This document shows positions 5,788 through 64,000 of a DNA stretch of 64,000 nt, in pieces (positions within the stretch are counted from its first letter, which is position 1; each line of letters begins with the position of its first letter). Made by a program: the position numbers and the translations under genes. This stretch comes from Balanoglossus misakiensis (taxonomy: Eukaryota > Animalia > Hemichordata). Where the stretch lies: the NCBI GenBank assembly GCA_040954595.2, contig CM082588.2:3784156-3848155 (forward strand). Direction: 5' to 3'. A model generated the notes under the pieces. It saw nothing but the letters and a program-made list of their open reading frames with translations, did not search any database and was not told where the DNA came from.

Positions 5788-7145
<1,358 letters not shown>

Positions 7146-44975: not shown

Positions 44976-47027
44976 ATGAGTTCGAAGTACTTACCGCGAT
45001 TGTGGACCAGATATCGCCCCAGTTTTTGCGGGCGTTTGTGTGGCTTCGATACAACACAATTGACCGCTGGTTCTGTGTCATACAGCGTTTGTGTACAGCA
45101 AAGGACTGATCGTGCAGCCTTGTTAGAAAGGTACGGTAAAAGCCGTTTGACGTGTCATTATCATTTTGCCAAAGAGGGACATGCTCTTCAAGGAGACACG
45201 GCACGGCCACTCCACCACCGGTACTCAACTCTGTGCGATGACCCCGTTGTATTCAAGGTCAAAGACCGACCGTCGATTTCTGCCACTCGCCGACGACCGA
45301 TCAGTTTCTTCGGCTTCGGATCGTCCGAGCAGAACGCCTGGCAGAAGGCGGTCTCGGAAGCCGAGAAGCTGGTCGGCTACCCGACGTCGTTCATGAGCCT
45401 TCGGTGTCTACTCAGCGACGAGCTGTCAAACGTGGCGATACAGGTCAGAAAGCTGGTCGGCACTAGGCATCCACTTCTGAAGACGGCAAGGTATGGTATG
45501 CCCATACACTCACGGTTGTCATTGGAGTACAGTTGCTTGTGATCTTGACTTGAGCTACTAGTACGCTACTCCAGCTAGTTACCATGGCACTATAATGCCA
45601 ATGTAATGGTGGCCACTTCTCTATTCACATGTTGAAAATTTCCAAGAGCATATACCAATAATAATATCATTATCTAATTTTGCAGGACATTTGTTTATGA
45701 TGGCAGAAACAATATGCAGACTCGTGGCCTGATTGTGCTGCTGATATCCAAAGCTGCAGGGCCAACCTCTGCAGCATCCACGTTAGGTGACGGTGTAGAA
45801 CCGAGCATCGTCAGTGGCATTTACGCCAGGTAAGCATTGAGAGTTACAAACAGTTTGTCTTAGAGTACCGGTGTCTCAGCCAGTATAACACTACCTTTTG
45901 TGTGTTTCCACGTCTCTGGCAGCCAAAGAGCTCTAGCGGAGATCACCGAAATGATCCACACGGCGTATTTAGTTCACAAGGGCGTGGTCAACCTGCGGGA
46001 CCTCACACCGGCAGACGGGCCGGAGAAAGACATGGAGTTTGGCAACAAGATGGCCGTGCTGAGTGGGGACTTCCTGCTGGCAAATGCTTCCACTGGACTC
46101 GCCGAGCTGCGTAATACTAAGGTAAGGGAATCTCATGGGAATTTTGAAAATCATAAATTCATGGGGAGAGGAACACATATTCTGTCATTTTCATTTTGTT
46201 TCATTTAGGTTGTTGAGATTGTTTCGAGCGCCATCAGAGACATGATGGAGGCAGAGTTCACTGGCTATTCCAACAGACAGACAGACTCCCCCGACAGGAA
46301 GATGGCTGTCTCTGATTGGTTGGAGTGGGCATTCCTGTCATCGGGCAGTCTAATTGCCAAGAGTTGTCAGGCGGCTCTCAGTCTGGCAAGTCACTCGGAC
46401 GAAATGCAGCAACATGCTTATGACTACGGCAAGAATATGTCCCTAGCACAGCAGGTGAGTTGTCATGTGCTCATATCAGTGTATTTGTGATAGACAGCCT
46501 CGTATTTAATACTCATCTTCAGCATCCACTATCAGAGATAGTTGTTCGCCATGACAGTCTTTTTGCTTTGTCTTGTTCAGTTATTCGCAGAATTATCCCA
46601 GTTTACCAATGGACCGTCGGCAGCACAGATAAATCTCAACTCTGTGCCAGTTTTGATGTTCCTTCAGTCCAAAGACGAGAATCACAATCTGGAGAGATAC
46701 AAGAAGAATGGTAAAATGGACTACAAAAGGGTATGCATGGTTATCATTATAAGTACAACTTTTCCCATCATTTCTAATGAAGGTAATTAAATAACCTAGC
46801 CGACTAGTCCAGCTGGCTCTCTACTTAATTGCTTTCATTTACTTTTAATTATCTTGCTTTTTTCTTTTCAGCTTCACACGGACATATCATCCAGCGATGC
46901 TATACACAGAGCCAGGTTGCTGTGTCACGAGTACGGACAGAAAGCATTGGAGGCCCTCAAGCCGTTCCCAGACAACGATGCCAGCAGAGCGCTTCAGAAT
47001 ATCATTCATGCGATCACTCGCAGATGA
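44976..47027 (+). CDS. PDSS2: All-trans-polyprenyl (decaprenyl) diphosphate synthase subunit 2; 6 coding exons, about 469 aa
   Basis: Exons 44976-45490, 45686-45829, 45923-46121, 46209-46454, 46581-46730 and 46872-47027, all GT-AG and phase-compatible, with TGA at 47025-47027. Motifs [90 protein letters not shown] and ASRALQNII. The first DDxxD motif is degenerate (LVHKGVVN), as in PDSS2 rather than PDSS1. Confidence 0.96.
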
Positions 47028-47241
47028 CCCCGTCATTCAGACTCTGTTGTTCATATTTTATAGACATTATTCTTAGTCCTGCTTTACAGAATCTGAAAAC
47101 AGGCTTCTAGGCTGCATGACATGATAAATTCCTTGGGGACTGATAGTGTGAATTAAAGTTTATTAGATTCGCATTCGATGCTTGTACAAATGTACTGGTG
47201 TAATTCCTACTATTTAATTTGCATGATGATCTAGCATATTT

Positions 47242-47837: not shown

Positions 47838-49868
47838 TCACATTTGCAAGTCGGCATACACAACATCCGTATCTTCCGAAACAATTTTCGGTTTGCGAGG
47901 TGACGATGACGTCAGATCCAAGTCAGCATACAGAAGTCCCTCTACATTCTTTACTTCTTTGACGTCATCGTTTGGAGGAGCGGAATCATCAATGGCAGTT
48001 AAGGGCGCATCCAAAACTTTGTCGGGGTGGGTTTCTTCGGGCTCCCCTGGAGGGCTGTACAAATCTTCCTCGCGTTGTTCATCAACATCATTTTGGCGTC
48101 TGTTCACGTTGGTGGGTTTTGGAGGAGGGCGTGGTTTCTTTACTACTGTGTACTCAACACCGACCAGGTTCTCCCTTTCCACGTCATCGTGCTTGTTGTC
48201 GTTGTTTGGAGTGACAGGATTGTCCTTGCTAAGTTGGGAAGTGTCCGATGTTCCAACAGAACTGGTTACTTCCGTCTGCGGAGGACTGTGTGAGTCATCG
48301 GGACCCCTGTCACTTTTTGGCTTGGGGAAAGGACGTGGCTTCTTGATCTCTGCGTACCCGACATCGATCAATTTATCCTCACCTCCCTCATCCATGACTT
48401 CACCGTCGTATATATTGCCGCCGGCTTCAGTAGCTTTCATTCCATTGTCTACCACTCGCATGCCCTCGATGGTACCCTGAATTTGCTCGCTGACCGTGTC
48501 GTATTCAACGCGCGTCTCAGGAGAGCCACGTGCGCCGCTGTTACCGTCTTTTTCGTTGGGTGCATTTTCTTCGAGTTGCACCTGCGTTGATGTGAAGGCG
48601 TGGTCGGGATTTTCCGCCAGTTTGCTGTTGCTTCTTCTGTGTTTAATGATACACACAATCGCCAAGACTACGATTAAAACTAATAGAAGTCCACCTCCTG
48701 CACTCGCACCAACGATTATGACGTCTACCCCAACTTGTGTGTCCAGTTTTGGTTGTTTTGAAGTTGCCTGTGACTGAGGCTGTGTCGCTATGGACGACAC
48801 AGGCGACCTATTAGTATTACCTGTCGTCGTTGGGGGAGCTATACTAACTGCCAAAAGAGACGAGATCTTCGTTGCACCGACGTCATTGGTAGCTTCACAT
48901 TCCACCAATGCATTGCGATCTTCATATCTTATAGATAGTATTGTCAGTGTTGAAATATTATCTGAAGCTTCAATGCGAAACATTTCTTGAGTGTCGTCAA
49001 TCAAATTAGTTCCAAAGTACCACTGAACAGAAGTGATCTCTGGGTTTGCATTCCATTGACAAGTAAATGTCCTGACTTCGCTTTCACTTCCTGGTTCAGT
49101 TCCAACCTGTTGGAGTGTCAGCTTGGGTTTGTATTGAATGTCAAATGGACCAATTTCACAGGTTTTGTCCTGCAAGTGGAAGGGACCCAAACGTCGTGAT
49201 GTACATGTTAATTTGATTCCCTGTTCAGTGAAGGTCGGTGACCAGATATAAAATAAATTCAACATGGAAATACTTCGCGATAAAGTGGTGTTCAGTTCGC
49301 GACCTGTGTCATTTTGTACAGACCAACTCAAGGTGACTTCCGGGTTTCCTTTCTCACAAAGGCAGCCCAAACTAACATCCTCACCTTCACGCACAGTTGT
49401 ATCGATATACGTGCAAAATGGGTGTGTAGGAGGAGGGTCTTTACGGACAGTCAAATATGCGTCGTCGGATCGTAGTATTTCTGTTCCAGGTTCACCATTG
49501 GTTACATCGTTCACGTAGCATGCGTAAACGCCACTGTCTGGTCCAGCATAGTCGTGTTGTACGTTCAGTATACGCAAGTTTAGATCCAAGGAATTTTGAG
49601 CCGTCGGTATTAAGTGAACACTATAGTCTGAATCAACACCCAGGTGTGATGGCAAGTTCTGAATCATGCTTGACTGCGCTGATATTTCCACTCCATTTTT
49701 TCTCCAATGGTGTCGATAACTATGACTGTTGTTAGCGATGGCACAATACAGAGTAATAATCTCGTTTTCCTCCGCGGTGGTGTTCATTGGTGTTTCTGTG
49801 AACACGAGTTGACAACTCACAATCTGCCAGGAAAGTCCAATAACACAAACCAAGTAAAGCATATCCAT
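47838..49868 (-). CDS. IgR-A: type-I TM IgSF receptor with uninterrupted CDS (signal peptide, V + C2 + C2/I Ig domains, S/T stalk, TM) and a long ITIM-rich tail, about 676 aa
   Basis: ATG at 49868 gives signal peptide MDMLYLVCVIGLSWQIVSC. Ig hallmarks TLYC...W...DSGVYAC, SLGC...LSW...LTC and FTC...QWY...VEC. TM VIIVGASAGGGLLLVLIVVLAIVCII followed by KHRR. Tail motifs VEYDTV, VGYAEI, VEYTVV, LLYADL, VVYADL. Confidence 0.92.
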   Translation of the reverse strand: MDMLYLVCVIGLSWQIVSCQLVFTETPMNTTAEENEIITLYCAIANNSHSYRHHWRKNGVEISAQSSMIQNLPSHLGVDSDYSVHLIPTAQNSLDLNLRILNVQHDYAGPDSGVYACYVNDVTNGEPGTEILRSDDAYLTVRKDPPPTHPFCTYIDTTVREGEDVSLGCLCEKGNPEVTLSWSVQNDTGRELNTTLSRSISMLNLFYIWSPTFTEQGIKLTCTSRRLGPFHLQDKTCEIGPFDIQYKPKLTLQQVGTEPGSESEVRTFTCQWNANPEITSVQWYFGTNLIDDTQEMFRIEASDNISTLTILSIRYEDRNALVECEATNDVGATKISSLLAVSIAPPTTTGNTNRSPVSSIATQPQSQATSKQPKLDTQVGVDVIIVGASAGGGLLLVLIVVLAIVCIIKHRRSNSKLAENPDHAFTSTQVQLEENAPNEKDGNSGARGSPETRVEYDTVSEQIQGTIEGMRVVDNGMKATEAGGNIYDGEVMDEGGEDKLIDVGYAEIKKPRPFPKPKSDRGPDDSHSPPQTEVTSSVGTSDTSQLSKDNPVTPNNDNKHDDVERENLVGVEYTVVKKPRPPPKPTNVNRRQNDVDEQREEDLYSPPGEPEETHPDKVLDAPLTAIDDSAPPNDDVKEVKNVEGLLYADLDLTSSSPRKPKIVSEDTDVVYADLQM

Positions 49869-49965
49869 GACTCCAACTTGATCGACCAACGAAAAAGTAC
49901 CGTTCGTCCACTCTAAGTCTAGTCTCCAAAAGAGCAATGTTAACGCCTTCGCCTCGGTGCAAATC

Positions 49966-49984
49966 GTTTCCTCAATCCGGGTTA
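49966..49984 (-). promoter_or_regulatory. Conserved upstream element of IgR-A (two ETS-like cores)
   Basis: Plus-strand GTTTCCTCAATCCGGGTTA; near-identical copies upstream of IgR-B and IgR-E. Confidence 0.55.
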
Positions 49985-50132
49985 TGTTACACTTTTACTG
50001 TTAAACAGGTATGCTATCTCTTTGATATGCAAATTGATGTTTAAATGGTGGAGTTAGGTGCACCGGTGAACCGGGCTTCGTGCTGTAGAAATAAAAGCGG
50101 AAATACATAGTGTTTTACTCCTCAATAGATCT

Positions 50133-51686
50133 CTACTTTATTAGACTCTCATAGGTGGCCACATTTTCTCCATGGCAACTGTCTCCACGCACAAGCACAG
50201 CATACCCTTCCTCGTTAACGATATCCAATTCTCCATCCCCGCTGTTGCTAGCTTGCTTGACGGTTTCATATGTAGGGCTATTCTTTTCTGCCATCTCAAG
50301 GCTGGTTTTATTCTTTGACCCAGTGTTGGCGTGTATTTCTTTGACATTACTGACAACATAGTCCTTTGAACGAGGATCTTCGCTCTGGGTGTAGTTAGCT
50401 AGGTATCGGATACGACGACAAGCTTTGTAGAGGAAGAATGCAAGAATTACCGCGGTGGCAAATGTCAGAGCAAACAAACCACCCAAAACAGCCACGACTG
50501 AATTGTCACTGTCAGTCTTGTTGTACAGTTTGGCAGATGCTGTGTTAAGATACACTAAAGATGTTGTTTCCACTGTCACAATGCTTGTTTGCAACGATAA
50601 ACCGTTGCTTGTCTGCGTCACAGTCTCTCTCTTGGATGTTGGGAATGGAGTCAAAACACTCAACAAGGACGAGATCTTCGTTGTACCGACGTCATTGGTA
50701 GCTTCACATTCTACCACTGCATTGCGATCTTCATATCTTATAGATGTTATTGTCAGTGTTGAAATATTATCTGAAGCATCAATGCGAAACCTTTCTTGAG
50801 TGTCGTCAATCAAATTATTTCCAAAGTACCACTGAACAGAAGTGATCTCTGGGTTTGCATTCCATTGACAAGTAAATGTCCTGACTTCGCTGTCACTTCC
50901 TGGTTCATCCCCAACCTGTTGGAGTGTCAGCTTGGGTTTGTATTGAATATCAAACGGACCAATTTCACAGGTTTTGTCCTGCAAGTAGAAGGGACTTGAA
51001 CGTCGTGATGTACAGGTGAATTTGATTCCCTGTTCGGCAGTGTAGTTCGGTGACCACATATAAGACAAATTCAACATGGACGTACTTCGCGATAAAGTGG
51101 TGTTCAGTTCGCGGTCTGTGTCACTCTGTACAGACCAACTCAGGGTGACCTCGGGGTTTCCTTTCTCGCTGGTGCAACTCAAGCTAACTTCTTCGCCTTC
51201 ACTCACTGTTGAATCGATATAAGTGCAAAATGGGTGTGTAGGAGGAGGATCTTTACGAACAGTCAAATATGCGTCGTCGGATCGAAGTATCTCCGTACCA
51301 GGTTCACCATTGGTTACATCGTTCACGTAGCATGCATAAACGCCACTGTCTGGTCCAGCATAGTCGTGTTGTACATTCAGTATTCGTAGGTTTAGATCCA
51401 AACTAATTTGAGCCGTTGGTATAAGGTGAATACTGTAGTCAGAATCAACACCAAGATGTGCTGGCAAGTTCTGAATAATGCTTGACTGCGCTGATATTTC
51501 CACTCCATTTTTACTCCAGTGGTGTCGATAAGTATGACTGTTGTTAGCGATGGCACAATACAGAGTAACAATATCGTTTTCCTCAGCGGTGGTGTTCATT
51601 GGTGTTGTGGTGAACACAGGTTGACTACTTACAATCTGCAAAGACAGTTCCAGAATGCAACATGCAAGTAAGCCGAACGCTTCCAT
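50133..51686 (-). CDS. IgR-B: type-I TM IgSF receptor with uninterrupted CDS; ectodomain paralogous to IgR-A; short tail with hemITAM-like NEEGYAVL and terminal YESL; about 517 aa (alternative ATG at 51728)
   Basis: Signal peptide MEAFGLLACCILELSLQIVSS; three Ig domains about 89% identical to IgR-A by manual count; TM VVAVLGGLFALTFATAVILAFFLY; stop TAG at 50133-50135. Confidence 0.92.
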   Translation of the reverse strand: MEAFGLLACCILELSLQIVSSQPVFTTTPMNTTAEENDIVTLYCAIANNSHTYRHHWSKNGVEISAQSSIIQNLPAHLGVDSDYSIHLIPTAQISLDLNLRILNVQHDYAGPDSGVYACYVNDVTNGEPGTEILRSDDAYLTVRKDPPPTHPFCTYIDSTVSEGEEVSLSCTSEKGNPEVTLSWSVQSDTDRELNTTLSRSTSMLNLSYMWSPNYTAEQGIKFTCTSRRSSPFYLQDKTCEIGPFDIQYKPKLTLQQVGDEPGSDSEVRTFTCQWNANPEITSVQWYFGNNLIDDTQERFRIDASDNISTLTITSIRYEDRNAVVECEATNDVGTTKISSLLSVLTPFPTSKRETVTQTSNGLSLQTSIVTVETTSLVYLNTASAKLYNKTDSDNSVVAVLGGLFALTFATAVILAFFLYKACRRIRYLANYTQSEDPRSKDYVVSNVKEIHANTGSKNKTSLEMAEKNSPTYETVKQASNSGDGELDIVNEEGYAVLVRGDSCHGENVATYESLIK

Positions 51687-51776
51687 TATTGAACAGTTTC
51701 TCTTTGCTAAAGCGATAGGTATAATCATTCATAGACAGCAGAGTACTGTCTATATGGTGTAACTCAGTGTTGTGTT

Positions 51777-51794
51777 GTTTCCTTGATCCGGGTA
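51777..51794 (-). promoter_or_regulatory. Conserved upstream element of IgR-B
   Basis: Plus-strand GTTTCCTTGATCCGGGTA, 91 nt upstream of ATG 51686. Confidence 0.55.
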
Positions 51795-53108
51795 TGTTCA
51801 ACCATACTGTACTACATCAATATATAATTGATATGCTAATACACTGGTCCCATTAGAAAGAAACTGCTCTTCGCCAAAAAGCACCCAGAACAACACACAT
51901 GTACTTAGAATGGCATCATGAACGGGTTGTTGCCATACTTTTGAGGGTACAGCAGTCATCTTTCGTGACTTAATTTCACATCTTGGGGTCGATATATTCA
52001 GTTTGCAGAATGTGTATACATGTACCAGTTTTTGGTTTCAGATGTGGAGGTTGGTCAGTTTATGTCGCATTGGTCTACATGCAATAATGTGAAAGGGAGC
52101 GGTCATTGTGGCTTAAGTGGTCAAGTCATGATGAATCTATTGTAAACAAGTTAAGTATGTTTCTGAAAATAACTTTGTGGCCCATTGAAATTACTGTCTG
52201 TACAGCCGTATTCAAATAAAGACGAGGGTCAAATCAGGTCAACTTCTCTTTGTTGGCAGAATGCACTGAAACCTTTCAGTGTATGAGTTATTGTTCGGCG
52301 TTTTGTCTTAACAAAAAAGATAAATTTAAAAAATAACTTCGGATCATCAGAGAGTCCAATTAACAGGTTAAATTGTGTGAGTCTTAAAGTTTAAATAGGA
52401 GAATCTCGTCCTGAGATTTAACTTCTCTGTCGCTGCTACTTATAAATGCATTTCGTATTCAGTACACAGATCACGTATGGAAAAGTTGATGTAAAGAGGA
52501 CTTACCCTCGTGGCCGCCTATTTTTCATTGTAACACAACGACCTCTCGAACACACATACACACAAGGCCTTAAGAAACCACTTAAGTCGAAATGGGGGGT
52601 TTGAATCAAAAGTCAGTTGCTCACGGAAGAAAAAAAACGCCAGGGGTGTTTTTTAAATGTTTACAGCGTGACTCAAGCTTCTAAGTGAGTTTCTCTTCTA
52701 TATCACCCGTGGATTGTTCAACACACGCAGTCGTGTGTATCGATGAATAAACTTTATTGACATCTCCAGATATAGTTATAAATGCAAAAAATATTCAACA
52801 CAAAAATATTACATACAAATACCTAAAATTCATTGATATACACTTAACAACGATGCATTTTTCTAAGATGCACTATTCTAAGTACGTATGCTGTGACATC
52901 ACAAAACTTACTGAATTTGTAAAGTTCCAAATAAATACTGGTATGCAATTTTGTACTTATCGCTTTGCTGTTTGAAGTTCTGAATAAATATGCAATTTCG
53001 CAGTTTCCTTTTTGCTGTAAGAGAATTCTCTTCCCCTCTCTCTGCCCCTTTCCCTCCCCTATCTGTCTGTCTGTCACTTAAATGTGGTGAGCTCTGCATT
53101 TTCGTTCA

Positions 53109-55142
53109 CTAAAAAGAGTTTTCATCTTCCAGTGTTATTATCGTGTTGTCCTCGCAAGACTGCGCGTCTTCCTGCGCGGTGACTTGGTCCGTTTCCATGA
53201 CATCCATGAGAATATCATCACACTTGGAAGGCAGTGGGGGTGGCGGCGCATCTGCGCTCTCTTCCTCCCCTCCGACGTTATCATTGACTGTCCCGGTCTG
53301 GCTGTGATCTGTGTCGCCTGCAGGTTTTGGTTTCTCCCGTTTCAGGGATCTGTCTGGCTGGGCATACAGATCGGCAGTTTCCGTGTCGGTGTTTGTCGTG
53401 TTTTCTGCGCTTTCCTCGATTTGCGAAATTGATGGATCGACGCCATCTTGTGCCGACATTTCCGTCATCTCTTCGCCGTCGACGGCGAAGTACGGGTTCT
53501 CGTATCCCGCTTCCTTCAGTCGCAATCGGAGATTCTCAAGAGACTCCTCCTGCGGGGAATACTCGTCTGCGTTTTTCTGTCGCCGTTTGCGATTGTTTGC
53601 CATCAGGAGGATGGCGAAGATAATCGTGAAGGCGATCAAGGCCAACAGACCGATCACTACGGCGACTATGATCACCCACAATTCAGTCCCCGTCGAGGTT
53701 GGTTGTCTGTCAAAGCCCCGGCCGACAGTCGGCGATTCTTTTCTGGTTGTGGCCGTTCGGGTGGTTGGCACCTCTGGTTGTGGTGATGATCTGAGATTAC
53801 TGCGAGAAGTTGCTGTGTCTGATACCATCACAGTGCTCAGTTGCTGGGTCTGTGTGCTTGGTTTGATTGGCGACTTTGTAGTTCGATGACTAGTAGTAAT
53901 AGTGTCCCGTGTTGTACGGCCACTTGTTGGAGTGCTCCTGTGCGTTGTAAAGGCAGCTGCGGTGGTACTTATTCGATTATCCCCGGTCGTTTGTTGCGAT
54001 GTGCGTTCTGATGTCTCTTCGGGTGGGCTTGTGGATGTCACTGCTCCGGTACTACTTTCATGTGTCGGCGCGATGGTTGACGAACTGGAATCCGTCACGT
54101 ATCTCCCAACTGTCAACTGTATCGCTTTGAACCAATAGTAAACACTGTTGGGAAATTCTACACCACATTTGTACAGTCCACTATCATCAGGTTTAACGTA
54201 ATCGAATATAATGTTATAATCGTTGGGAAAATTACTTAACTCGACGGCAATAGGCAATTCATCACCATGTGCATCATGGTATTTCACAAATTCATTCCAT
54301 GCGAAGCTTTGAGTGTCTTTATGCCATACCAGGTTCTGACCAGGTTGTAGCTCTGTCACCTCACACCGTAATTCGTAGGTCTCATTTTCAACAGCATATT
54401 CATGAATCGTTTCGATATCGGCACTTTCTACGACTGTCAGCCATGCAGGCCGCGACCACTCGATGTCACCAAACTCGGAGTCTACCCCACACCTGTATAT
54501 ACCTGTGTCTTGGACTGTGACGTTCGAGATACTAATGTTGTATTCGCCTTGCGTGTAGTCACCCATAAAACTAACACGACCAGGAAAGTTGTTCATGTCC
54601 TCGACAGTGTCGTTGAAAGTAAATATCTCCGAGTCCTTACTCCAGCGGAGATTTGGGTTGGAACCTATGATATTGATGCCACATGACAGTAACGCCGTTC
54701 CCCCTTCATACATTCCTGAACTACTTGGATGAAGGATAATATGTTCCGATACAGTGAGTGTGGCTCCACCAGACCAGACGAGCTCACCGGTGTCGTATCG
54801 AACACCACACCTATAAACACCACTGTCTTGAACTTGAACGTTGGGGAACTGAATACTAGTATTGTACCGCCCTCGTTGGCGGTTCATGTCGACAGTAAAC
54901 GGGGAAACACTCGGGTTATGAACACGGAGCTCATCGATTGAAATGATCAGGTCGTCTTTCTTCCACAGCAAGGATTGGTCAGCCATGAGTCCATCTACAC
55001 TACAAACAAGTGTCACAATTTCGTTCACAGATACATGGATATTGCTGGGTTCCTCGATAAAAGTCACTGACTGTACATAGGAGAGGCAAACCACCACCAA
55101 CAGAATAAGCAGACAGCGTTTATTTCCACCTTGGGAAAGCAT
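53109..55142 (-). CDS. IgR-C: type-I TM IgSF protein with uninterrupted CDS; three V/I-set Ig domains, long mucin-like S/T stalk, acidic tail; 677 aa
   Basis: Signal peptide; three repeats of C...W.KD...D(S/T)G.Y.CGV (DSGVYRC, DTGIYRC, DSGLYKC); TM LWVIIVAVVIGLLALIAFTIIFAILLMA then NNRKRR; tail GYENPYF, DLYAQP, PPPPLP. Confidence 0.92.
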   Translation of the reverse strand: MLSQGGNKRCLLILLVVVCLSYVQSVTFIEEPSNIHVSVNEIVTLVCSVDGLMADQSLLWKKDDLIISIDELRVHNPSVSPFTVDMNRQRGRYNTSIQFPNVQVQDSGVYRCGVRYDTGELVWSGGATLTVSEHIILHPSSSGMYEGGTALLSCGINIIGSNPNLRWSKDSEIFTFNDTVEDMNNFPGRVSFMGDYTQGEYNISISNVTVQDTGIYRCGVDSEFGDIEWSRPAWLTVVESADIETIHEYAVENETYELRCEVTELQPGQNLVWHKDTQSFAWNEFVKYHDAHGDELPIAVELSNFPNDYNIIFDYVKPDDSGLYKCGVEFPNSVYYWFKAIQLTVGRYVTDSSSSTIAPTHESSTGAVTSTSPPEETSERTSQQTTGDNRISTTAAAFTTHRSTPTSGRTTRDTITTSHRTTKSPIKPSTQTQQLSTVMVSDTATSRSNLRSSPQPEVPTTRTATTRKESPTVGRGFDRQPTSTGTELWVIIVAVVIGLLALIAFTIIFAILLMANNRKRRQKNADEYSPQEESLENLRLRLKEAGYENPYFAVDGEEMTEMSAQDGVDPSISQIEESAENTTNTDTETADLYAQPDRSLKREKPKPAGDTDHSQTGTVNDNVGGEEESADAPPPPLPSKCDDILMDVMETDQVTAQEDAQSCEDNTIITLEDENSF

Positions 55143-56464
55143 GATGATCGGCGAATCAATGTCGACACGAAGACTTGTTTCTGGAACTGAATAATCCCTG
55201 GCACGGCGGCGACTTCTTAATCTGTGTGCGCGGGTGTGGTAACATCTGAATGCTGCATGACTGACTGTGTTTTGGCAGGGCGATACTTGTATTCAATTCT
55301 CCCCGAAGAGGGCAAATAATAGCCACGCCTGAATCACCGCCACTGAGATGACTGCTGTCTTTGTGCTCGGGTACTCACGTGAACAATAGCCAACGAAGGT
55401 AACCGATGAGTTGGAATTTTCATAATCGCGAGGCCAAGCCCCTTGCCTATTACGAAAGCAAGCGGCGGTAAACACCGTCATTTATCATCATCATCGTCAG
55501 TGAAAGTGTCCCGGGCAAGTCGGGTCTTGACAGCTTGCAACGAGAAGAGGGCAAAGCAGCGGTCGTTGAAATCCCCACAAGTGTTTACTGCTCTATTGTG
55601 ACCGCGTAGCACGTTGAAAGACTTATTAAAAGGTCATTCTCGACTGTGTATAGGGCTGGCATTGGTCGAGGCTTGTGAAGGGTGGGGTAAACGCCCTCAA
55701 CCCCCGCGTATGACGAGATGGGCGTGTCTGCGGTCAAATGTATGATTCACTGGAGAGGATAACTGAACGCCCAGTGAAACATTTTGGTTAATATTTGGGT
55801 GCAAAGCGGTGGCTGTAAACAAAATAAGGTGGATAAAACAGTAAAAATGTTGACTCTAGGTTGAAAACGCCATCACATGTTGTGGCTTGTGCCTACAGAG
55901 CTTGAAGTTAAGTGCTCATTTGATGTGCCGGATCTTTTCGGTGATCCCTCTCCCGGTTCACAGAGTTCAAAGTTCATTCTGGTTGAGATCCTCAGATGTG
56001 AACCTATCTTTCATCGCCCTTTCTCCAAACAATGTTCACGAAGTACGAAGTAAATGGGGACACGGATTCAACCACCTGTGAATGTGTCCGCCCAGGTTTT
56101 TTTTTATTTGAACACACGCATATTTAAAATGTGCGTTTGGGTATTGAATGACACACAAAGACGATTCTCAAGATCAGTCGTACATGTCGGTTGACCTGAC
56201 GAAAGATGACCTAAATACGGCCGAGTAGATGATCACAAACTGAGTACAAATAGAAAACCTAGTGGCCAAGTATTACCAAAATTATCGAATACTAATTTTA
56301 TTAGTACACAATCACCCCAGTAAACTATTATACACACAGTCGATATTGCCTTATATGTTACCCGCAAAAATGATGCCAAAATAAATGTACAGACATACTA
56401 CTAGACTTGTTTGATTGAATGTGCAATTAAAATAAATTCACATTAATAATTATGCGCCTGATAT

Positions 56465-57982
56465 TCACTTCTTCCCAGTGGTAAGTTTGGTGTAGACTTC
56501 ATTACTTGGCCCTGTCAGACTTTCATATTGGCCGTCTGGTGCTCCGCCGGCTGTCTCCGGCCTGACCTGGACACGGTTGTTGTCTTGGCTGGTTTCTGTA
56601 GGACGGGCTGAAGGGATAGCGTCGGAGGAGGTTCCATTTGTCTCAGCTTCTAACTGAAAATAAACAGGTGTATTTTCTTGGCTGGTGTCGTTTCCAGTTC
56701 GAGGGGCCGACGGGGCACCGTTGTGCTGGCTTTCGTTTGAGTCCGGAATGATTTCAATGTAAGAGCGCGTAGTTTCTGATCTGGCCGCCCTGTCGGTCGT
56801 CGGGTTGGGCGGAGGTGTTCCCGGCTCGGGGCGGATGTAGTTATACTCGTCTTCGCTTTTGGGCTCAGGTCTTGCGTACGAGTACGTCAAGACATTGCTG
56901 AACTGTTCTCCGGTCGCCTCTCTACTCTGACCCTTTCCATCTTTTAATTTCAGCCCCTTGCACTTGATGATGACAGCTCCGACGAGAACGGTGACCAGGG
57001 AGCCGAGAAGGAGACCGCCGACGAGAGAACCGATGACTGACCACGGGGGTTTGTTGGCGGTCTGACGAGCAAAGGTGCCGTGTACGGTGGAGTTTCGCGT
57101 CGAAGTATATGCACTTGAACGCGGAACAGTAGCCGTGTTCGTAGTCAGAGATCCTTCAGTTGAAAGAGAAGTCGTTGGATTCTCTGCGATGACGTAAAAG
57201 GGCCCTACAGAGCACGAGCGATCCGCTTGAAGCCCCGGATGTTGCAAAGTGCAGGTGAACTGAAAATTCAACAGACGAGCCGATGTCGGAGTCCACTCAT
57301 ACGAATCTACTCGCAACCCGTCTCCCCGTGTATAAGAATACGATTGGAGAATTACCCGTTGGTCGCTGCGACGCCAGTTCAAATTCACGGCGGGAAAACC
57401 GGGGTCTGATGTACAGAGCAAACGAACGGTCTCTCCGAGTGTGAATTTAACGGGTGTGTTCGTCGTATCGACATAACGACCATCCAAATGAACCATCGAA
57501 CACTCTGGATAAATATTTCGAGGAACCGCATATACGGTAACCGTGGCATCCGAAGACATTCCCACTAATGGACTCGCCTGTTGTTGATTAGTTAGAGTCC
57601 TGTAGACTGCGCAGGTGTATTGGCCACCGTCCATTTCTGCCGTTCCTGTGGTAATACCAAATACGAGTAAACCATAGGTATTTTCTGCGCCGGTTGAGGT
57701 CACCAAGTATCTCTCGTCGGTGCCCCCGACATTTTGTCGCATCTGGTAATTATCACTCACGATGACGCCATTTTTCAACCAGGACACATACTCGTCAGTA
57801 GCGAGGGTGCCAGCTAACTTGCAGGCCAAGTAAAAAGATCTGGCCGAACCCCCGTATTGGACAAAAACTTCCTGGTCGCTGGGTTCGACTGCGAATAACC
57901 CGTTGGTGTTTCCGACCAACACGCACAGGCAAACCAACAGCCGCAACCACACCGGACAATTGCCAAGTCTTTCAGCGGCCAT
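56465..57982 (-). CDS. IgR-D: type-I TM IgSF receptor with uninterrupted CDS (V + C2 domains) and a canonical C-terminal ITAM, about 505 aa
   Basis: ATG at 57982 gives MAAERLGNCPVWLRLLVCLCVLVGNTNG; Ig cores YLAC..SWLKNG..DGGQYTC and LLC..LNW..FTC; TM WSVIGSLVGGLLLGSLVTVLVGAVII; tail ends DGQYESLTGPSNEVYTKL. Confidence 0.92.
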   Translation of the reverse strand: MAAERLGNCPVWLRLLVCLCVLVGNTNGLFAVEPSDQEVFVQYGGSARSFYLACKLAGTLATDEYVSWLKNGVIVSDNYQMRQNVGGTDERYLVTSTGAENTYGLLVFGITTGTAEMDGGQYTCAVYRTLTNQQQASPLVGMSSDATVTVYAVPRNIYPECSMVHLDGRYVDTTNTPVKFTLGETVRLLCTSDPGFPAVNLNWRRSDQRVILQSYSYTRGDGLRVDSYEWTPTSARLLNFQFTCTLQHPGLQADRSCSVGPFYVIAENPTTSLSTEGSLTTNTATVPRSSAYTSTRNSTVHGTFARQTANKPPWSVIGSLVGGLLLGSLVTVLVGAVIIKCKGLKLKDGKGQSREATGEQFSNVLTYSYARPEPKSEDEYNYIRPEPGTPPPNPTTDRAARSETTRSYIEIIPDSNESQHNGAPSAPRTGNDTSQENTPVYFQLEAETNGTSSDAIPSARPTETSQDNNRVQVRPETAGGAPDGQYESLTGPSNEVYTKLTTGKK

Positions 57983-59089
57983 TGTGACGTCTGTCTTCAA
58001 TGAATGTTTGCCGTTACCTTCGCTTCCCCTTGTTGTCTCTGCTGGGAGGGCGACGGACAACTTTATCAAAAGGAAAGAAAACAAACATTTTAAAACCTGA
58101 TCCGACACACGGTTAACCCATTAAAGCCGACTTCTACCATTTTTTTCTAACTGCCTTGCATATACATACAGCGAATGTGTACTTACCATTGACGTTGCCT
58201 TCTACGTGCCAAATAGTGTTGGCATGCGTCGCGGTAACCTTTGACCCGGTAACGCAGAGCCCAAGACGAAGGTCGCGTAGCAACCATGCAAGAAAATCAA
58301 AAGTAGCCTAGTTGAACAGTTATTCAAACAAACTCGTTGGGTTCTTCGCGCACTTAAAATTCACGACGCATTTCTTTCTGAGGAATTCACCCCCAAACCA
58401 CTTGGCATGAAAACCCGTACAATGGGCTGGATGTATTGTTGAAATTGGGAACACATTTGACTAAGAATAGGTTTATAAACTAAAAAAAGCATCACGTGTC
58501 CCGAGTGAATGCACCTGACAAAGAGAGAGCCTAAATAGGAAGGACAGAGGACCCGGCATTTAGCCAAGAGGACACCATTACCAAAGTGTTCATTGGAGAT
58601 TCTTTACAACAGACATTTTAGTGAAGTCACTCTCCCGGCTTGATTGGCTAACAGTATGTCAGCCAAAATAGAAGTGCTCTTAGTACATTTTGCCAACAAA
58701 TGGATATTTCTTACCTTTTACTTGTGGCGTTTTAGCGCTGGTCGCGTTACTCAATATTAGACGACATGTCACACGGCCTGTCAGTTGTCCGGCTTTAGGC
58801 TATCTGTTTATTTATTTATTTCACCACCATGAAAAGAGTGACAACGACAGAGAAATGATAAAAAATACAATTGGGCACGGTGTGGATCATTATCATGGTG
58901 CTGATTTACCGTCTGCCCTCGAAAAACAACACACGCTTCCATTCTCGACACATTTTGTTAATTTTATCGGGATATAACCACACACGCTTATAAATGGTCA
59001 CGTACTGATGAGATCAACATCACCTCGTGCGTGTGTGTATATGAATGGTTTCTAAACGATCTGTTCCAACGAACCCCAAGGTGATACCT

Positions 59090-61216
59090 TTACATCCTTA
59101 ATTCGGCGTAAACGACGTCATCATCTTCGATTCTTGGCTTCGTGGTGTGACGTCCTGGTGTCACATTTGACAGATCCAGGTCAGCGTATGTCAAGCCTTC
59201 AACGTTTCTAGATCGACGGTCGTCACCTCCGTCCGCGTTCTGTCGCTGTCCCGGGGACTCGAGCACATCGTCGTACACTGGGTTTCCCGGAGATGGCTGT
59301 GTCCTCCGCTGTGGGTCTGTGTCACGGCCTCCGTGCTCCGATTGGCCACTGACGCTTCTTCGACTCGCCGGAAGATCGGTAACGTTTTCATAAGTGGCTC
59401 CTGCCCGATTGTCGACGGTCACGCCACGGGCTCCAATACGATTGGGCTTAGGCTTGACGTCTGGTTGCTTGTTCCCGCTCTCGACTCTTGTGTGACCTGG
59501 CCTGTTTGCGTCATCTTCGGGAGAATTGTCCGAATTGGCCTCGTGGTCTTTACCGTCACTAATGGCCAGTTCCAACGTTTCGGTTGACGGTTCCACAAAG
59601 TTCCTGCCCTTCTCTGAGACATGCTGGCTTTTTATATTGCTCGCCACATCCACATTTTCAGTGGCGTTGCTGTTCGGGTCTTTTTTACGCGTTACCTTTG
59701 CCTTGAGCTGGATGTCTATTGAAGCTGCATTGACCGAGTTTTCAGACGCATTCCTGTAAGCGACGTTGACCACCGCATACGTCTCGGCAACATCGCTGGC
59801 GTCCCGGCCAATTTCGCCTTTCTCGCCGTCTTTGACATCGCGCTGCTGCGTTGATTTTGTTGACTCGGTGCTCTGTCGGCGTTTTTTTACCACGACTACG
59901 ACGATTACTACAACCCCACCGGCCAACAGGATCAAACCACCCGCTACCACACCGGCGATAACCCCGGTGTCCAGGCGTTGATCAACCGCCGGAGCCAAGT
60001 CTCCTTGGATTGGAGCGGTGGTCGTGCCATAGACATCGGTTGTACTTTCCGTTGTGTCCAAGTCGCCTGCTGCTGTTGTTGTCGCACGTGTACTTCTTTG
60101 TATCTCCGTGGTAACCGGTGGGATGTCAACAACAAAACTGACATTGGCACTGCCAGTCCCTATGCCATTGGTCATTTCACATCTTACCTGATGAAGGCCA
60201 TTTTCCTGGTTACCGAAACCAGAACTCCGCAGTGAAAGATTCTGTAAGCTGAACCGACCATCCCCGGGGGTCACTGCCTCGTCATCGTAAAACCACTGGA
60301 TTTGTGTGACGTCAGGGTTCGAATCTGGAATACAGGTAATGGTGATGACGTCTTCCGAAGACGTCAAGAATTCCCTCGTCGCGTTTGCCTCTACCGTCGG
60401 TGCGTACTGGATGTCAAAACCTCCCACGCTGCAAGTTCTGTCCGACGTCATTCCGGGATGTGATAGGGTGCAGGTGAAATTTACACCTGGGTCATCGAAT
60501 CTAGACGGTGTCCACGCATATGTAATGAACAGCAAACCGTCGCCAGTGGCCCCGGATTGGTCCCTTTGCAAGGGGTCGTCGACATCATTCCGACTCCAGT
60601 ACATGGTGACAGTAGGGTAACCGGGGTCTGAGAAACATGTCAGGGTATACGTGCCTCCTTCACGAACTGCGATCGGTATCGACGTCGCCAGGCCGAAACC
60701 GAGCGAATCTGACGCCGTGCACATGGGGAACTCTGGCCGAGGAACTTCGTAGATAGTCACAGTGGCAACTCGCGACGTTTCAACCACGTAATCACCTACT
60801 GTTGTTATTGCGCATTTGAAAGGACCAACGTCGGTGTATGCAGTGTCCCTCGTTACGCCATACACTACCAGAGAGTAGCCAACGCTATTACCGAGATAGT
60901 TTACATCAGTCAGAAAGTACCTGTCCCTATCGACGATATACTCACTTATGGAACGAAAGTTCTTATTATCGGCAAAGATGATGTTATTCTTGTACCACGA
61001 TATCTTCTGATCCGTGTCCAACGTCGATACGATGCAGTACAAACTGAAAGACCTAGTTTGTCCTGGTTCAATGGTGACCGTCTGGTCTTGTGGTTCAAAT
61101 ACAAAAAGCTGCTCGGCGAGCGAGGTGTCCGGCCAACTTGCCAACAGGAACGCCCCGACGACTAAAATTGCTCTGGTCTTGCGTGAAGAACTCGTGTGCC
61201 CCATCGAGACCTCCAT
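59090..61216 (-). CDS. IgR-E: type-I TM IgSF receptor with uninterrupted CDS (V + C2 + C2/I), long tail with two C-terminal ITIMs, 708 aa
   Basis: Signal peptide AILVVGAFLLASWPDTSLA; three Ig domains; TM VIAGVVAGGLILLAGGVVVIVVVVV then KKRR; tail YENV, YDDV, LTYADL, VVYAEL. Confidence 0.92.
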   Translation of the reverse strand: MEVSMGHTSSSRKTRAILVVGAFLLASWPDTSLAEQLFVFEPQDQTVTIEPGQTRSFSLYCIVSTLDTDQKISWYKNNIIFADNKNFRSISEYIVDRDRYFLTDVNYLGNSVGYSLVVYGVTRDTAYTDVGPFKCAITTVGDYVVETSRVATVTIYEVPRPEFPMCTASDSLGFGLATSIPIAVREGGTYTLTCFSDPGYPTVTMYWSRNDVDDPLQRDQSGATGDGLLFITYAWTPSRFDDPGVNFTCTLSHPGMTSDRTCSVGGFDIQYAPTVEANATREFLTSSEDVITITCIPDSNPDVTQIQWFYDDEAVTPGDGRFSLQNLSLRSSGFGNQENGLHQVRCEMTNGIGTGSANVSFVVDIPPVTTEIQRSTRATTTAAGDLDTTESTTDVYGTTTAPIQGDLAPAVDQRLDTGVIAGVVAGGLILLAGGVVVIVVVVVKKRRQSTESTKSTQQRDVKDGEKGEIGRDASDVAETYAVVNVAYRNASENSVNAASIDIQLKAKVTRKKDPNSNATENVDVASNIKSQHVSEKGRNFVEPSTETLELAISDGKDHEANSDNSPEDDANRPGHTRVESGNKQPDVKPKPNRIGARGVTVDNRAGATYENVTDLPASRRSVSGQSEHGGRDTDPQRRTQPSPGNPVYDDVLESPGQRQNADGGDDRRSRNVEGLTYADLDLSNVTPGRHTTKPRIEDDDVVYAELRM

Positions 61217-61306
61217 TCGTATTCCTTACAGTTAGAATTAGTAGTGAATGGTCAGGGCGATGACATTTCCTACGTGACGTTGACGCCCTTTTCGTGCAGG
61301 TATGTC

Positions 61307-61324
61307 GTTTCCTGGATCCGGGTA
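61307..61324 (-). promoter_or_regulatory. Conserved upstream element of IgR-E
   Basis: Plus-strand GTTTCCTGGATCCGGGTA, 91 nt upstream of ATG 61216. Confidence 0.55.
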
Positions 61325-62432
61325 CTTTCACTTATTCACTTCTCTGTTCATTGTTGTGTAAATCACTTGACATTGGACGATTAATTTACATATGAATGGA
61401 TACCAGAATGGGAATCGAAGGGGAAACCCCCGATAACAATAACGTAAATGAGCATAGCATTGACCGTAATAGTCATTTCGAAGACGTTCGAGTAATTCGA
61501 AATTGGTATCTCGATAACGCCCATGTGACTAGGCTAATCAAACGCCTTTCAGTTCCCGTTATCTCATTAAGACGCAATAATTCAACAACTGTATTGCTTA
61601 CTATCAATGGCCACGACGGATGTCACCAGTGAATAAAATACTTTTATTTCAAGAAAGTGGATAATATACATCACTCTCACGATGGTTATTTTCAATGGAA
61701 ACAACAGGCATTTCATGCAAATCAATCACCACGGTAACATGTACATGATATCATACTTATATTTACACACACCACTGAGAATGAAAGTTACACTTCTCAT
61801 GTTTCGTTTTTGACAACAGTATTAACATAAAAAGGTACACAATTTACAAATAAATCTGGATCTGAAATAAACAAGATCGGACGGAATAAACAACACTCGA
61901 ACTGGCCAAGACACGTGTGAGAATGAAATGGACACGACTGGGCCATGATCAGGTAGTATAGTGCGCCACCAATGGCAGAAATACCAACTTCTTTCATGAA
62001 GAGTATAACATCACATTCCTTGAACTATTTTCCTGTTCGTATCTAGGACAAACTCTGCTGCACTTAGTTTATCGTGGCGCAACATGAGTCAGTCCTTGTG
62101 TTCCAATTTTTTCTCTGAATGGATTTAAACTGCCTGCACATCGCATGGCAGGCAAAGTATGTGCATTAATGCCAATCTGACATTATCCATACAAACAGAT
62201 GCAACTCTGGTCCCACATAACACTACCCAGTTCGGTTGAGCGATGTGAGGTATTTGGTTTCCAAGGCACCCCGTGCCTTGCAGGGGGTAATTATTGCCAA
62301 TTATTGCTTGGAATGTCGTCCACCCTACATCGCGGAAAAGGCTCTTTGTGATTGGGTAACACAGGCACCTGAACAAGGGACATCATGGATAAAAAAATCA
62401 ATCAGAGAAGGGCTTCTTCAAAGGCACTGTCA

Positions 62433-64000
62433 TCATGTTGTTACATTGGCTGAGTCGTGTGAAGGGTTGACCCACAGCGTGCTCAAACATTTTGCCTCCT
62501 GCAAAACAAGAAAACAATAAAAAATCCATGATGAATGGCCACGAAAAATAGTGACGCAATGGGACAACGATGTCTTCTCTTGTAATGTTTCATGTCCTCC
62601 CCAGGAAGTCCTCAGAGATTACTTGGGAGGAAAATATTATCGTTGATATTTGCACAAACAGTGGTCTCTAAACTACTAACCTTAATGACGCAATCATCCA
62701 AGATTGACTTCATTGTCAGTGGTAACGGCTTAGGGGGTGGGTGTGGCGAAGTCTCATGTTCTGAGCTTTCACTCTGTTCTGCTGACTTTATTCTCCTGTG
62801 AATGAAAAAAAATAAACGGTTTATATTCACAAAATAAAACAAGTTGCTCACAGAAGAAAAGCACAGCAGTGTCTGTCTACCTTTGGGGCTTTTTCACACT
62901 TGGATGTGGCGCTCACCTTTTGCCAGAAGACCCCCTGCTGTGTCTGCTGCCGCTCTTCGATGACGTCATACTTTTCTTGCTGCTGACGGTGCTGTAGACC
63001 GACCTGTGTTCCGAGAGTTCGTCTATTGCGGACAAGGGTGCCGATGGGTTGGCCGACCCGACTGTGCTCGGCAAAGCCAGGTAGCCGGTGGATTTGTCCT
63101 CCTCCAGAGGGGGTAAGTTGAGTTCTGGGGGTCCAGCTGCCCTTGGGGGTGAGGGTAGTACTGGATATTTTTGCTTTGGTTCATGGGAGACCATGCTTAT
63201 CTGAAGGGGGAGAAAGAATAAAAATGAAAATTCTATCGTGTTGGGGTATACTGTACCAGAATACAATAAATAGCATTTTTAGGTGTTTGGACAGAAACCT
63301 GATGTGCGACAGAAGTTTTGTACTTACAAGTTCTCCAATATTTGGTCCTTCTGTCATCCAAGCGAAATCTTCTTTCTTATCAAGAATTCTGAAAAATGAG
63401 AGAACAGAAACCCATAAAGAACAAATCTTGCTGAGTAGATTACATCACTAAGTAATATGATTACACCAACACTGTGGGGTTTGGCCTTTCTAGGTGACAA
63501 CATACCTGTGTGTAGCTGCCTGGTGGGCCAGCGCGTACTCGTACATTGTCCGGAGACGTCGCCTCTCGAAGTCTCGGATCCTGGCCCTCAACCGCATCTC
63601 TTCGTTCAACCGGATCATCTCGGGGTCTTCCTTCTTCGGCGCCAGGTCTAACGTGAACGTCGCTAGTTGCGGAAGCTCAATCTGGGATGCACAAAAAATA
63701 CACAGGGCGGAAATGCCAAAATTCATTGATGTGCAGTTGCAAGTGTGTCACATGCAATAAAGTGACATTCAAATGTGAAGCACAGAAAAAAGTCAAGAAG
63801 CCAAAATGCACACAGACGAGTTTCCAATACAACTGTACACAGAAGTGGTCACCAACACAGGTTGGACTGTATTCTGAAATATGCACTGACATACCTTGGG
63901 AAATCTTTGATCCACAGCCAGTGCCTTTGGGTGGATGGATGTTCTCCGTCCCTTCACAGGCGTTGCTAAGTAACTGGAAGGACCTTGCTGAGCCTGGATG
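62433..64000 (-). CDS. 3' coding exons of an unidentified multi-exon gene (5' part beyond the right edge)
   Basis: Phase-compatible GT-AG exons: >64000-63895, 63681-63506, 63388-63328, 63200-62917, 62795-62681 and 62498-62433 (TGA). They give ...IHPKALAVDQRFPK-IELPQLATFTLDLAPKKEDPEMIRLNEEMRLRARIRDFERRRLRTMYEYALAHQAATHR-ILDKKEDFAWMTEGPNIGEL-ISMVSHEPK...PLPLTMKSILDDCVIK-EAKCLSTLWVNPSHDSANVTT*. Candidate AATAAA on the minus strand at 61648-61643. Confidence 0.8.

Follow-up and report, generated by a model that had tools for sequence, protein, structure and literature searches.

Paired receptors, in which matched ectodomains are joined to tails of opposite sign, are a hallmark of vertebrates, and the published invertebrate cases are allorecognition genes of colonial animals. 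Here we describe five immunoglobulin (Ig) receptor genes, A to E, in a 64-kb stretch of DNA (hereafter the window) of the acorn worm Balanoglossus misakiensis, and compare them with the closest of these systems. [quoted passage not shown] The acorn-worm genes differ in having no homology to these pairs beyond the Ig fold, in being intron-free and in the non-canonical motif of B. In the Siglec-5/Siglec-14 pair the outer domains are partially converted and the activating member is structurally polymorphic between haplotypes, as here; Siglec-14 signals via DAP12, whereas the TMs of A to E are uncharged, and in place of the Siglec-5/14 fusion the second haplotype here replaces the proximal half of B (PMC4042635).

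Among invertebrates, Hydractinia Alr (bioRxiv 2022.03.04.482883) and Botryllus FcoR (PMC12582321, PMC12065747) are clustered Ig superfamily genes with ITAM, hemi-ITAM (hemITAM) or ITIM tails, and like the genes described here they show allelic differences in these signalling tails. Both are multi-exon allorecognition genes of colonial animals, whereas the acorn worm has a single-exon gene of its own, with a matching ectodomain, for each predicted polarity; FcoR also pairs with a separate Fester chain and swaps its motifs by splicing (PMC12582321), while the acorn-worm motifs lie on separate genes. Single ITAM receptors from an oyster and an ascidian are mentioned in reviews (PMC11999971, PMC5465252, PMC2248247). 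For hemichordates, no description of ITAM/ITIM Ig receptor clusters was found in the literature searched, most subscription journals lying outside it. With a hemichordate case, the gap from echinoderms to chordates is bridged, and it becomes directly testable whether paired-receptor logic is ancestral to deuterostomes or convergent.

Six-frame translation of the window yielded five uninterrupted ATG-to-stop open reading frames (ORFs) on the minus strand between 47,838 and 61,216. They are transcribed in the order E, D, C, B, A, separated by gaps of 1,107 (E-D), 1,322 (D-C), 1,380 (C-B) and 264 nt (B-A), and each encodes a full type I membrane receptor that starts with a signal peptide. None of the five genes has an intron:

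59090..61216, minus strand: gene E, single exon, 708 aa; signal peptide followed by V-C2-I domains, stalk, TM and a C-terminal tail with tandem ITIMs
59177-59194 and 59099-59116, minus strand: tandem ITIMs of E, tyrosine spacing 26
56465..57982, minus strand: gene D, single exon, 505 aa; V-C2 domains, stalk, TM and a tail ending in an ITAM
56483-56536, minus strand: canonical ITAM at the end of the D tail
53109..55142, minus strand: gene C, single exon, 677 aa; three V-set domains, followed by a long Ser/Thr stalk and a TM
50133..51728, minus strand: gene B, single exon, 531 aa; V-C2-I domains near-identical to those of A, stalk and TM unrelated to those of A
50142-50213, minus strand: hemITAM-like EEGYAVL in the short tail of B, with terminal YESL 13 residues on
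47838..49868, minus strand: gene A, single exon, 676 aa; V-C2-I domains, stalk, TM and a tail with five ITIM-type motifs
47919-47936 and 47847-47864, minus strand: last two ITIMs of A, forming the conserved cassette, tyrosine spacing 24

All five proteins match Pfam Ig families (D falls under the curated cut-off for Ig_3 and over it for 'ig'); in A, B and E, domains 2-3 match C2-set_2 and I-set, and C1-set is absent. Each protein has one hydrophobic TM with a core free of charged residues. An earlier note, made from the sequence alone, had described a same-strand cluster of five type I TM Ig receptors with uncharged TMs in a probable non-vertebrate deuterostome; the lack of introns was not mentioned there. 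Each of these points holds: ORFs, Pfam matches and single TMs agree with it, and a neighboring glutamate receptor exon (see below) places the animal among acorn worms.

The reading that we favor, and consider probable, is that these genes belong to an intron-free, nectin/Kirre-like acorn-worm family in which A and B would form an inhibitory/activating immune-receptor pair, with E (ITIM) and D (ITAM) as a comparable but older set. The cluster is real, intact and not a product of chance, and by this reading it is a new, intron-free acorn-worm version of the paired-receptor design.

The A/B pair and the predicted signalling tails

The identity between A and B is 92.5, 82.7 and 90.6% in the V, C2 and I domains, respectively. 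At the nucleotide level it amounts to 90.5% over 981 nt, in a tract with sharp edges that runs from the start of V to the end of I and covers the Ig domains only; stalk, TM and tail are unalignable. The two sides of the tract are:

50668..51648, minus strand: A/B homology tract, B side
48859..49836, minus strand: A/B homology tract, A side

Synonymous divergence (dS) is 0.31 in V, 0.36 in C2 and 0.07 in I, rising to 0.99 in the signal peptide and at least 1.5 (at or near saturation) in stalk, TM and tail, and non-synonymous divergence (dN) is 0.05-0.08; dN/dS in V and C2 is ∼0.2. Because dS is uneven across domains, dN is low and homology is limited to the Ig domains, A and B evidently stem from an old duplication, after which their ectodomains were made alike again patch by patch, in a conversion-like manner and under purifying selection. 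The same pattern of conversion has been described for CEACAM1/28 (PMC2110893) and Siglec-5/14 (PMC4042635), and the likeness to vertebrate paired receptors that had been proposed for the locus is reinforced by A and B, which carry the conversion signature of vertebrate pairs.

D and E stand much further apart, with per-domain identities of 37 and 42%, saturated silent sites and no third domain in D. A shared ligand therefore cannot be assumed for them, and they are old ITAM/ITIM paralogues of common ancestry with opposite tail motifs rather than a strict pair. Thus, of the two ectodomain-related pairs with opposite tails that the earlier note had recognized, A/B (83-93%) is by sequence the only one in the strict sense, D/E being 37-42% identical with two domains in D. 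A and E are 24-34% identical in the ectodomain and 44% in the last 87 residues; since the tails are more alike than the ectodomains, the ITIM end is the conserved part of these two proteins.

Tail motif counts were tested against 20,000 shuffles of each tail. The five ITIMs of A are a count that none of its 20,000 shuffles reaches; E has two ITIMs (P 0.015, strict 0.004) and D one canonical ITAM, DxxYESL-x7-YTKL (P 0.004, or 0.0015 with the acidic residue). The tail of B contains one [DE][DE]xYxxL motif (P 0.011) with a second YxxL 13 residues further on, and no ITIM, canonical ITAM or strict three-acid hemITAM; its activating motif is the weakest among the four motif-bearing tails, and under the hemITAM definition of PMC12582321 it is hemITAM-like, not canonical. 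The earlier assignments of ITIM tails to A and E and of an ITAM tail to D are strengthened by these counts, by conservation of the ITIM cassette in three other acorn worms and by recurrence of the D motif in a relative from Ptychodera flava (see below); for B, the two-acid motif bears out the label hemITAM-like, and the strict hemITAM and the canonical ITAM drop out. The ITAM of Fc-gamma-RIIA uses a spacer of 12, and by analogy the tail of B may therefore be a long-spaced ITAM. No ITIM or ITAM occurs in the tail of C, where the single YxxL/I/V is not above chance (P 0.40) and which contains YENPY, YxxP and poly-Pro. The A and E tails also carry nephrin-type YDxV sites, and YxN and YxxP sites are present among the tails. 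The five proteins end in YADLQM, YESLIK, LTTGKK, YAELRM and EDENSF, none of which is a PDZ-type C-terminus.

In the mechanism that we propose, ligand binding at the GFCC'C'' face of the V domain would cluster the receptors, and a Src-family kinase would then phosphorylate their tails. Through their tandem ITIMs, A and E would engage an SHP phosphatase by its two SH2 domains and so restrain the cell; D, by its ITAM, and B, by its hemITAM-like tail, would recruit Syk/Shark directly, with no need of DAP12 or FcR-gamma as an adaptor. Gene conversion would keep the specificity of B matched to that of A, so that a microbe or non-self cell engaging A would also trigger B. An ETS factor would control A, B and E together in a single type of cell, for which a phagocyte or barrier epithelium is the likeliest candidate, and turnover of the V binding face and of the proximal half of B would reflect selection by microbes.

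A simpler account of the A/B tract is that ordinary gene conversion homogenizes tandem duplicates, that B is a drifting copy and that the pairing has no selected function. The weak motifs of B would fit this account, as would the lack of AATAAA within 700 nt after B and the difference between haplotypes over half of the gene. We consider it very improbable, since the 531-codon frame of B is intact, all of its Ig cysteines are kept, its V and C2 domains show the low dN/dS given above, the shared upstream element is retained at B and the visible codons of its second allele are open (read by eye).

Ectodomain fold and relatives in other acorn worms

The ectodomain of A was modelled with AlphaFold from 65 sequences (predicted local distance difference test, pLDDT, 92.5), replacing a 4-sequence model (pLDDT 58), and contains three Ig folds and no Fn3. 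Its best structural matches, all at 15-22% identity, are Rst D1-D2 (Z 17.9, root-mean-square deviation 3.1, 200 aligned), Necl-4 (17.8, 6.9, 272), DIP-theta (Z 16.9), SIRP-gamma (16.8) and nectin-1 (16.6), and the best solved relative of the family profile is nectin-3 (E 2.4e-10). A thus has its V-C2-I architecture and best structural scores in common with the nectin/CADM and Kirre/Neph/Rst/SYG molecules, from which it differs by an identity of ∼20%, by ITIM/ITAM tail ends in place of a PDZ-binding end, and by being expanded and polymorphic. Nectin/CADM and Kirre/Neph molecules have a C-terminal PDZ-binding end and one-to-one orthology, and Kirre has five Ig domains.

Siglecs have an essential F-strand arginine and an atypical V-domain disulfide, whereas the F strands here (YACYV in A and B, YTCAV in D, FKCAI in E) have the ordinary B-F cysteine pair and no arginine. 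The CEACAM N domain is devoid of the Ig disulfide, and the B-F cysteine pair of the V domain is present in all five proteins. SIRP-alpha/beta share with the acorn-worm receptors three Ig domains, tandem ITIMs ∼25 residues apart and V-domain polymorphism; however, SIRPs have a V-C1-C1 ectodomain and SIRP-beta uses a TM lysine with DAP12, whereas domains 2-3 here are C2/I, not C1, and the TMs are uncharged. Domains 2-3 of Alr have no paired cysteines and an Fn3-like fold (bioRxiv 2022.03.04.482883); here the cysteines are kept. Sequence and model together indicate a nectin/Kirre-like ectodomain from adhesion-molecule stock that is not of the Siglec, SIRP, CEACAM or Alr type, and from this ectodomain an independent origin of the paired system, as the earlier note had supposed, may be inferred. 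A match in the Protein Data Bank to a sea-urchin 'UrIg2' (E 0.007) disappeared with the profile, and a paper on UrIg2 was not found. Gene C has J-like G strands (WSGGATLTV) in its three tandem V domains and weak matches to the polymeric Ig receptor and T-cell receptor chains.

A profile built from E, A, B and D gave 1,087 matches at E 0.001 among 1.84 billion representatives. Thirty of these, chosen by rank or motif, were looked up and comprise 20 acorn-worm and 6 echinoderm proteins, one clustering with a sea cucumber protein and 3 unnamed. Word-based protein search with A returned frog KIRREL1 as the sole match (24%), and with the last 69 residues of E none of 56 candidates matched. The P. 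flava orthologue of E is XP_070550467.1 (52%), and P. flava XP_070550477.1 ends in an ITAM of the same spacing and position as that of D (DEHYQSL-x7-YTGL versus DGQYESL-x7-YTKL). These two and a third member appear to lie on one 771-kb scaffold, and eight further P. flava members apparently occupy a contig that putatively carries its mGluR1. The ITIM cassette, NVEGLxYA[DE]L...[VI]xYA[DE][LVI], recurs beyond A and E in proteins from P. flava, Saccoglossus and Glandiceps; its tyrosines are 24-28 apart (25-28 in the three other acorn worms), and its first motif was found in 5 of 155 matched proteins, all five from acorn worms. The nearest kin of the receptors are lineage-specific acorn-worm proteins, and the one-to-one orthology with conserved adhesion molecules that the earlier note had named as a possible objection was not found among the matches looked up.

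The P. flava V-V-C2-I receptors XP_070567944.1 and XP_070567943.1 are 90% identical. The former has two intact ITAMs and stops before the ITIM cassette; in the latter, both ITAMs no longer have their second tyrosine and the cassette is present. If the gene models are right, they would be a young pair split by tail polarity alone. A quick-method tree was built from 90 of 123 candidate rows; rows of short profile cover (among them P0127, P0137, P0166, P0234 and the frog outgroup) were dropped, and for both reasons no root or order of events is taken from it. E joins its P. flava orthologue (99), acorn-worm proteins surround D and E (85-90), and A/B are set off on a long separate branch. In Glandiceps and Saccoglossus, 'hemicentin-1-like' proteins (P0122, P0123, P0125) consist of arrays, up to 17 stretches long, of the C2-I unit of the receptors.

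The fold raises the alternative that these are non-immune adhesion or guidance receptors of the Kirre, nephrin, nectin or PZR type, with SHP2, Nck or Grb2 recruited to their tyrosines as positive scaffolds, be it in epithelium, in the glomerulus or in neurons. ITIM and ITAM would then be mere names of motifs, with no immune on/off logic behind them. The best structure and sequence matches are indeed adhesion molecules, including the frog KIRREL1 hit, and the YDxV, YxN and YxxP sites of the tails would suit such scaffolds. However, lineage-specific tandem expansion, ectodomain-only conversion, replacement-rich alleles, a swapped proximal half of B and the reciprocal ITAM/ITIM duo of P. flava are all unlike conserved wiring molecules, and the receptors have three Ig domains against the five of Kirre and no PDZ-type C-terminus. 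We regard this alternative as quite unlikely.

The second haplotype

Three runs of one sample (X1, X2 and X3), possibly the source of the window itself, cover the locus, and X1 and X2 contain a second haplotype at about half depth. Its contigs are unphased and all derive from this one sample. Alleles of E differ at 14 of 703 letters and those of the 3' end of C at 14 of 891; in the C ectodomain the differences reach 62 of 559 and 24 of 226 letters (∼11%), plus a 92-nt unalignable block. Against A, two non-reference contigs of the V domain show 32 differing letters of 294 and 40 of 325 (11-12%), which equals the divergence between A and B. Thus, the allelic variation of ectodomains anticipated for the locus is strong between two haplotypes of one sample.

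Among the differences listed (40 of 218, chosen by the tool), codons 53-81 of A contain 9 replacement and 2 silent codons, as compared with 5 and 12 in the polyprenyl-synthetase exons and 3 and 6 in the A tail, where the three changes inside ITIMs are all silent. On the AlphaFold model, codons 53-81 form strands C, C' and C'', and the second haplotype has a different F-G loop (loose end of a contig, read by eye). CEACAMs bind ligand and pathogen by the face with these strands and the F-G loop (PMC2110893). Two adjacent replacements, absent from reference A and B, occur in both V contigs of the second haplotype; this would fit conversion inside the second haplotype, provided that the unphased contigs are its A and B.

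The largest difference concerns B:

50066..50915, minus strand: stretch of B replaced on the second haplotype; begins at codon 272 and takes in domain 3, stalk, TM and tail up to the 3' end

A contig of 1,373 nt, anchored on both sides, swaps these 850 nt for 1,145 other letters, and X2 has loose ends at the same two breakpoints. The second B allele therefore has a different third domain, stalk, TM and tail; its visible codons, read by eye from loose ends, are open. A deletion of B by A/B fusion of the SIGLEC14-null type was ruled out, because the contig shows replacement. The second allele of A, at 48454-48829, has only in-frame insertions and deletions in stalk and tail (+9, -9, -12, net -54 nt).

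These data might be read as a haplotype-organized paired-receptor complex, in which conversion matches the activating to the inhibitory copy on each haplotype, alleles exchange whole signalling halves and a single ETS element governs the set; we put this extension forward tentatively and with some doubt. If it is correct, then together with similar clusters in echinoderms it would either place paired ITIM/ITAM logic at the root of the deuterostomes or show that this logic arose more than once. The receptors would also provide the first surface markers for the immune cells of hemichordates, whose immunocyte sources are stated to be unidentified (PMC10210618). A different source for the polymorphism would be self/non-self recognition (allorecognition or tissue identity), where each V domain would recognize the product of its own allele on other cells, as in Hydractinia Alr, and the balance of ITIMs and ITAMs would report a match. 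Signalling in this account overlaps with that of the paired immune receptors that we favor, and the two differ in the ligand and in the driver of polymorphism. The V-C2-I nectin/Kirre-like fold, typical of cell-cell adhesion, is consistent with it, as are the replacement-rich changes on the C-C'-C'' strands (among the differences listed), the different F-G loop, and the existence of allorecognition families with ITAM/ITIM tails in Alr and FcoR (bioRxiv 2022.03.04.482883, PMC12582321). Against this, a converted, decoy-like partner such as B is better explained by exploitation of A, and two haplotypes are all that were seen. Acorn worms are moreover solitary, and we know of no fusion/rejection system in them. 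We consider the allorecognition account unlikely.

Several observations weigh against the immune-pair reading itself, besides the distance between D and E, the non-canonical tail of B and the limits of the haplotype data given above. Tail polarity is assigned by matches to consensus motifs, and in adhesion receptors SHP2 bound to tandem YxxL motifs can have a positive signalling effect (PZR, or nephrin-type YDxV sites such as those of A and E). Structural matches of A to adhesion molecules and to SIRP-gamma are tied within ∼1 Z, and relatives of the family are automatically named CADM-, KIRREL- or nectin-like. No close relative of A/B was found among the 150 best matches. P. flava gene models are imperfect (XP_070550477.1 has no TM and XP_070550467.1 no ITIM end), and the absence of the cassette from XP_070567944.1 may be a model artefact, or the duo could be two alleles. 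Finally, background heterozygosity is high, with 810 differences per 20 kb in X1 and 9 in one 152-nt housekeeping exon; because the sample is heterozygous throughout, the 11-12% of the V domains is 2-3 times the local level, not 10 times.

Upstream elements, transcripts and neighboring genes

A 16-nt element, CCCGGATnnAGGAAAC, which we take to resemble two ETS cores, is located upstream of three of the genes:

61307..61322, minus strand: ETS-like element, 105 nt before the ATG of E
51777..51792, minus strand: ETS-like element, 63 nt from the first ATG of B
49966..49981, minus strand: ETS-like element, 112 nt from the ATG of A, inside the 264-nt B-A gap

These are the only three copies on both strands of the 64 kb, against 0.0003 expected from base composition; the remaining upstream DNA of A, B and E does not align, and the upstream regions of C and D do not contain the element. 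The shared putative site suggests common regulation of A, B and E. Its CCCGGAT core resembles epithelial ETS preference, which would also suit adhesion or guidance receptors. Two other consensus matches upstream of E, presumably kappaB-like and IRF-like, are:

61421-61431: kappaB-like match
61324-61333: IRF-like match

Matches of both kinds are frequent in the window (7 kappaB-like, 7-12 IRF-like), and those before E carry little weight.

Contigs of X3 skip the introns of the neighboring gene at GT-AG edges (4 joints, as against none in X1/X2), and we therefore read X3 as RNA. No joint interrupts them over E (58,935-61,333), over the end of D or over parts of C, which speaks for real, unspliced transcripts. 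Acceptor-like sites of cryptic introns were found in none of the five ORFs, and no X3 joint falls within E, D or C. The coding regions of A and B lie outside the X3 contigs; one 214-nt contig of depth 3, too thin to count, corresponds to the 3' end of the second allele. The transcripts of B and A may overlap or read through. A strong acceptor-like pyrimidine tract followed by CAG is located directly past the stop of B (50083-50105, minus strand) and is missing from the second haplotype.

Being short and single-exon, the genes are easy to amplify and test; public genomes mis-annotate them as CADM/KIRREL-like. A CADM1-annotated cluster is raised after poly(I:C) in Saccoglossus (PMC10210618); it could not be tied to this receptor family, with no match in one text supplement of that source.

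Both neighbors of the cluster are ordinary spliced genes, and a further gene lies near the start of the window:

44943-47200, plus strand: spliced polyprenyl-synthetase gene (Pfam), probably PDSS2, with both alleles present in X3
61625-64000, minus strand: 3' exons of a multi-exon gene of no identified family, ending ∼400 nt before the ATG of E; the one exon tried had no Pfam match
5788-6576, minus strand: group I metabotropic glutamate receptor (mGluR), first coding exon

The mGluR exon is 84% identical to that of Ptychodera flava, 87% to Saccoglossus (over a shorter cover), 80% to Glandiceps and 61-73% to fishes. The ∼38 kb upstream of it contain no recognizable long ORF. One X2 contig links positions 52472 and 61009, with 25 letters on the short side, probably through a short repeat.

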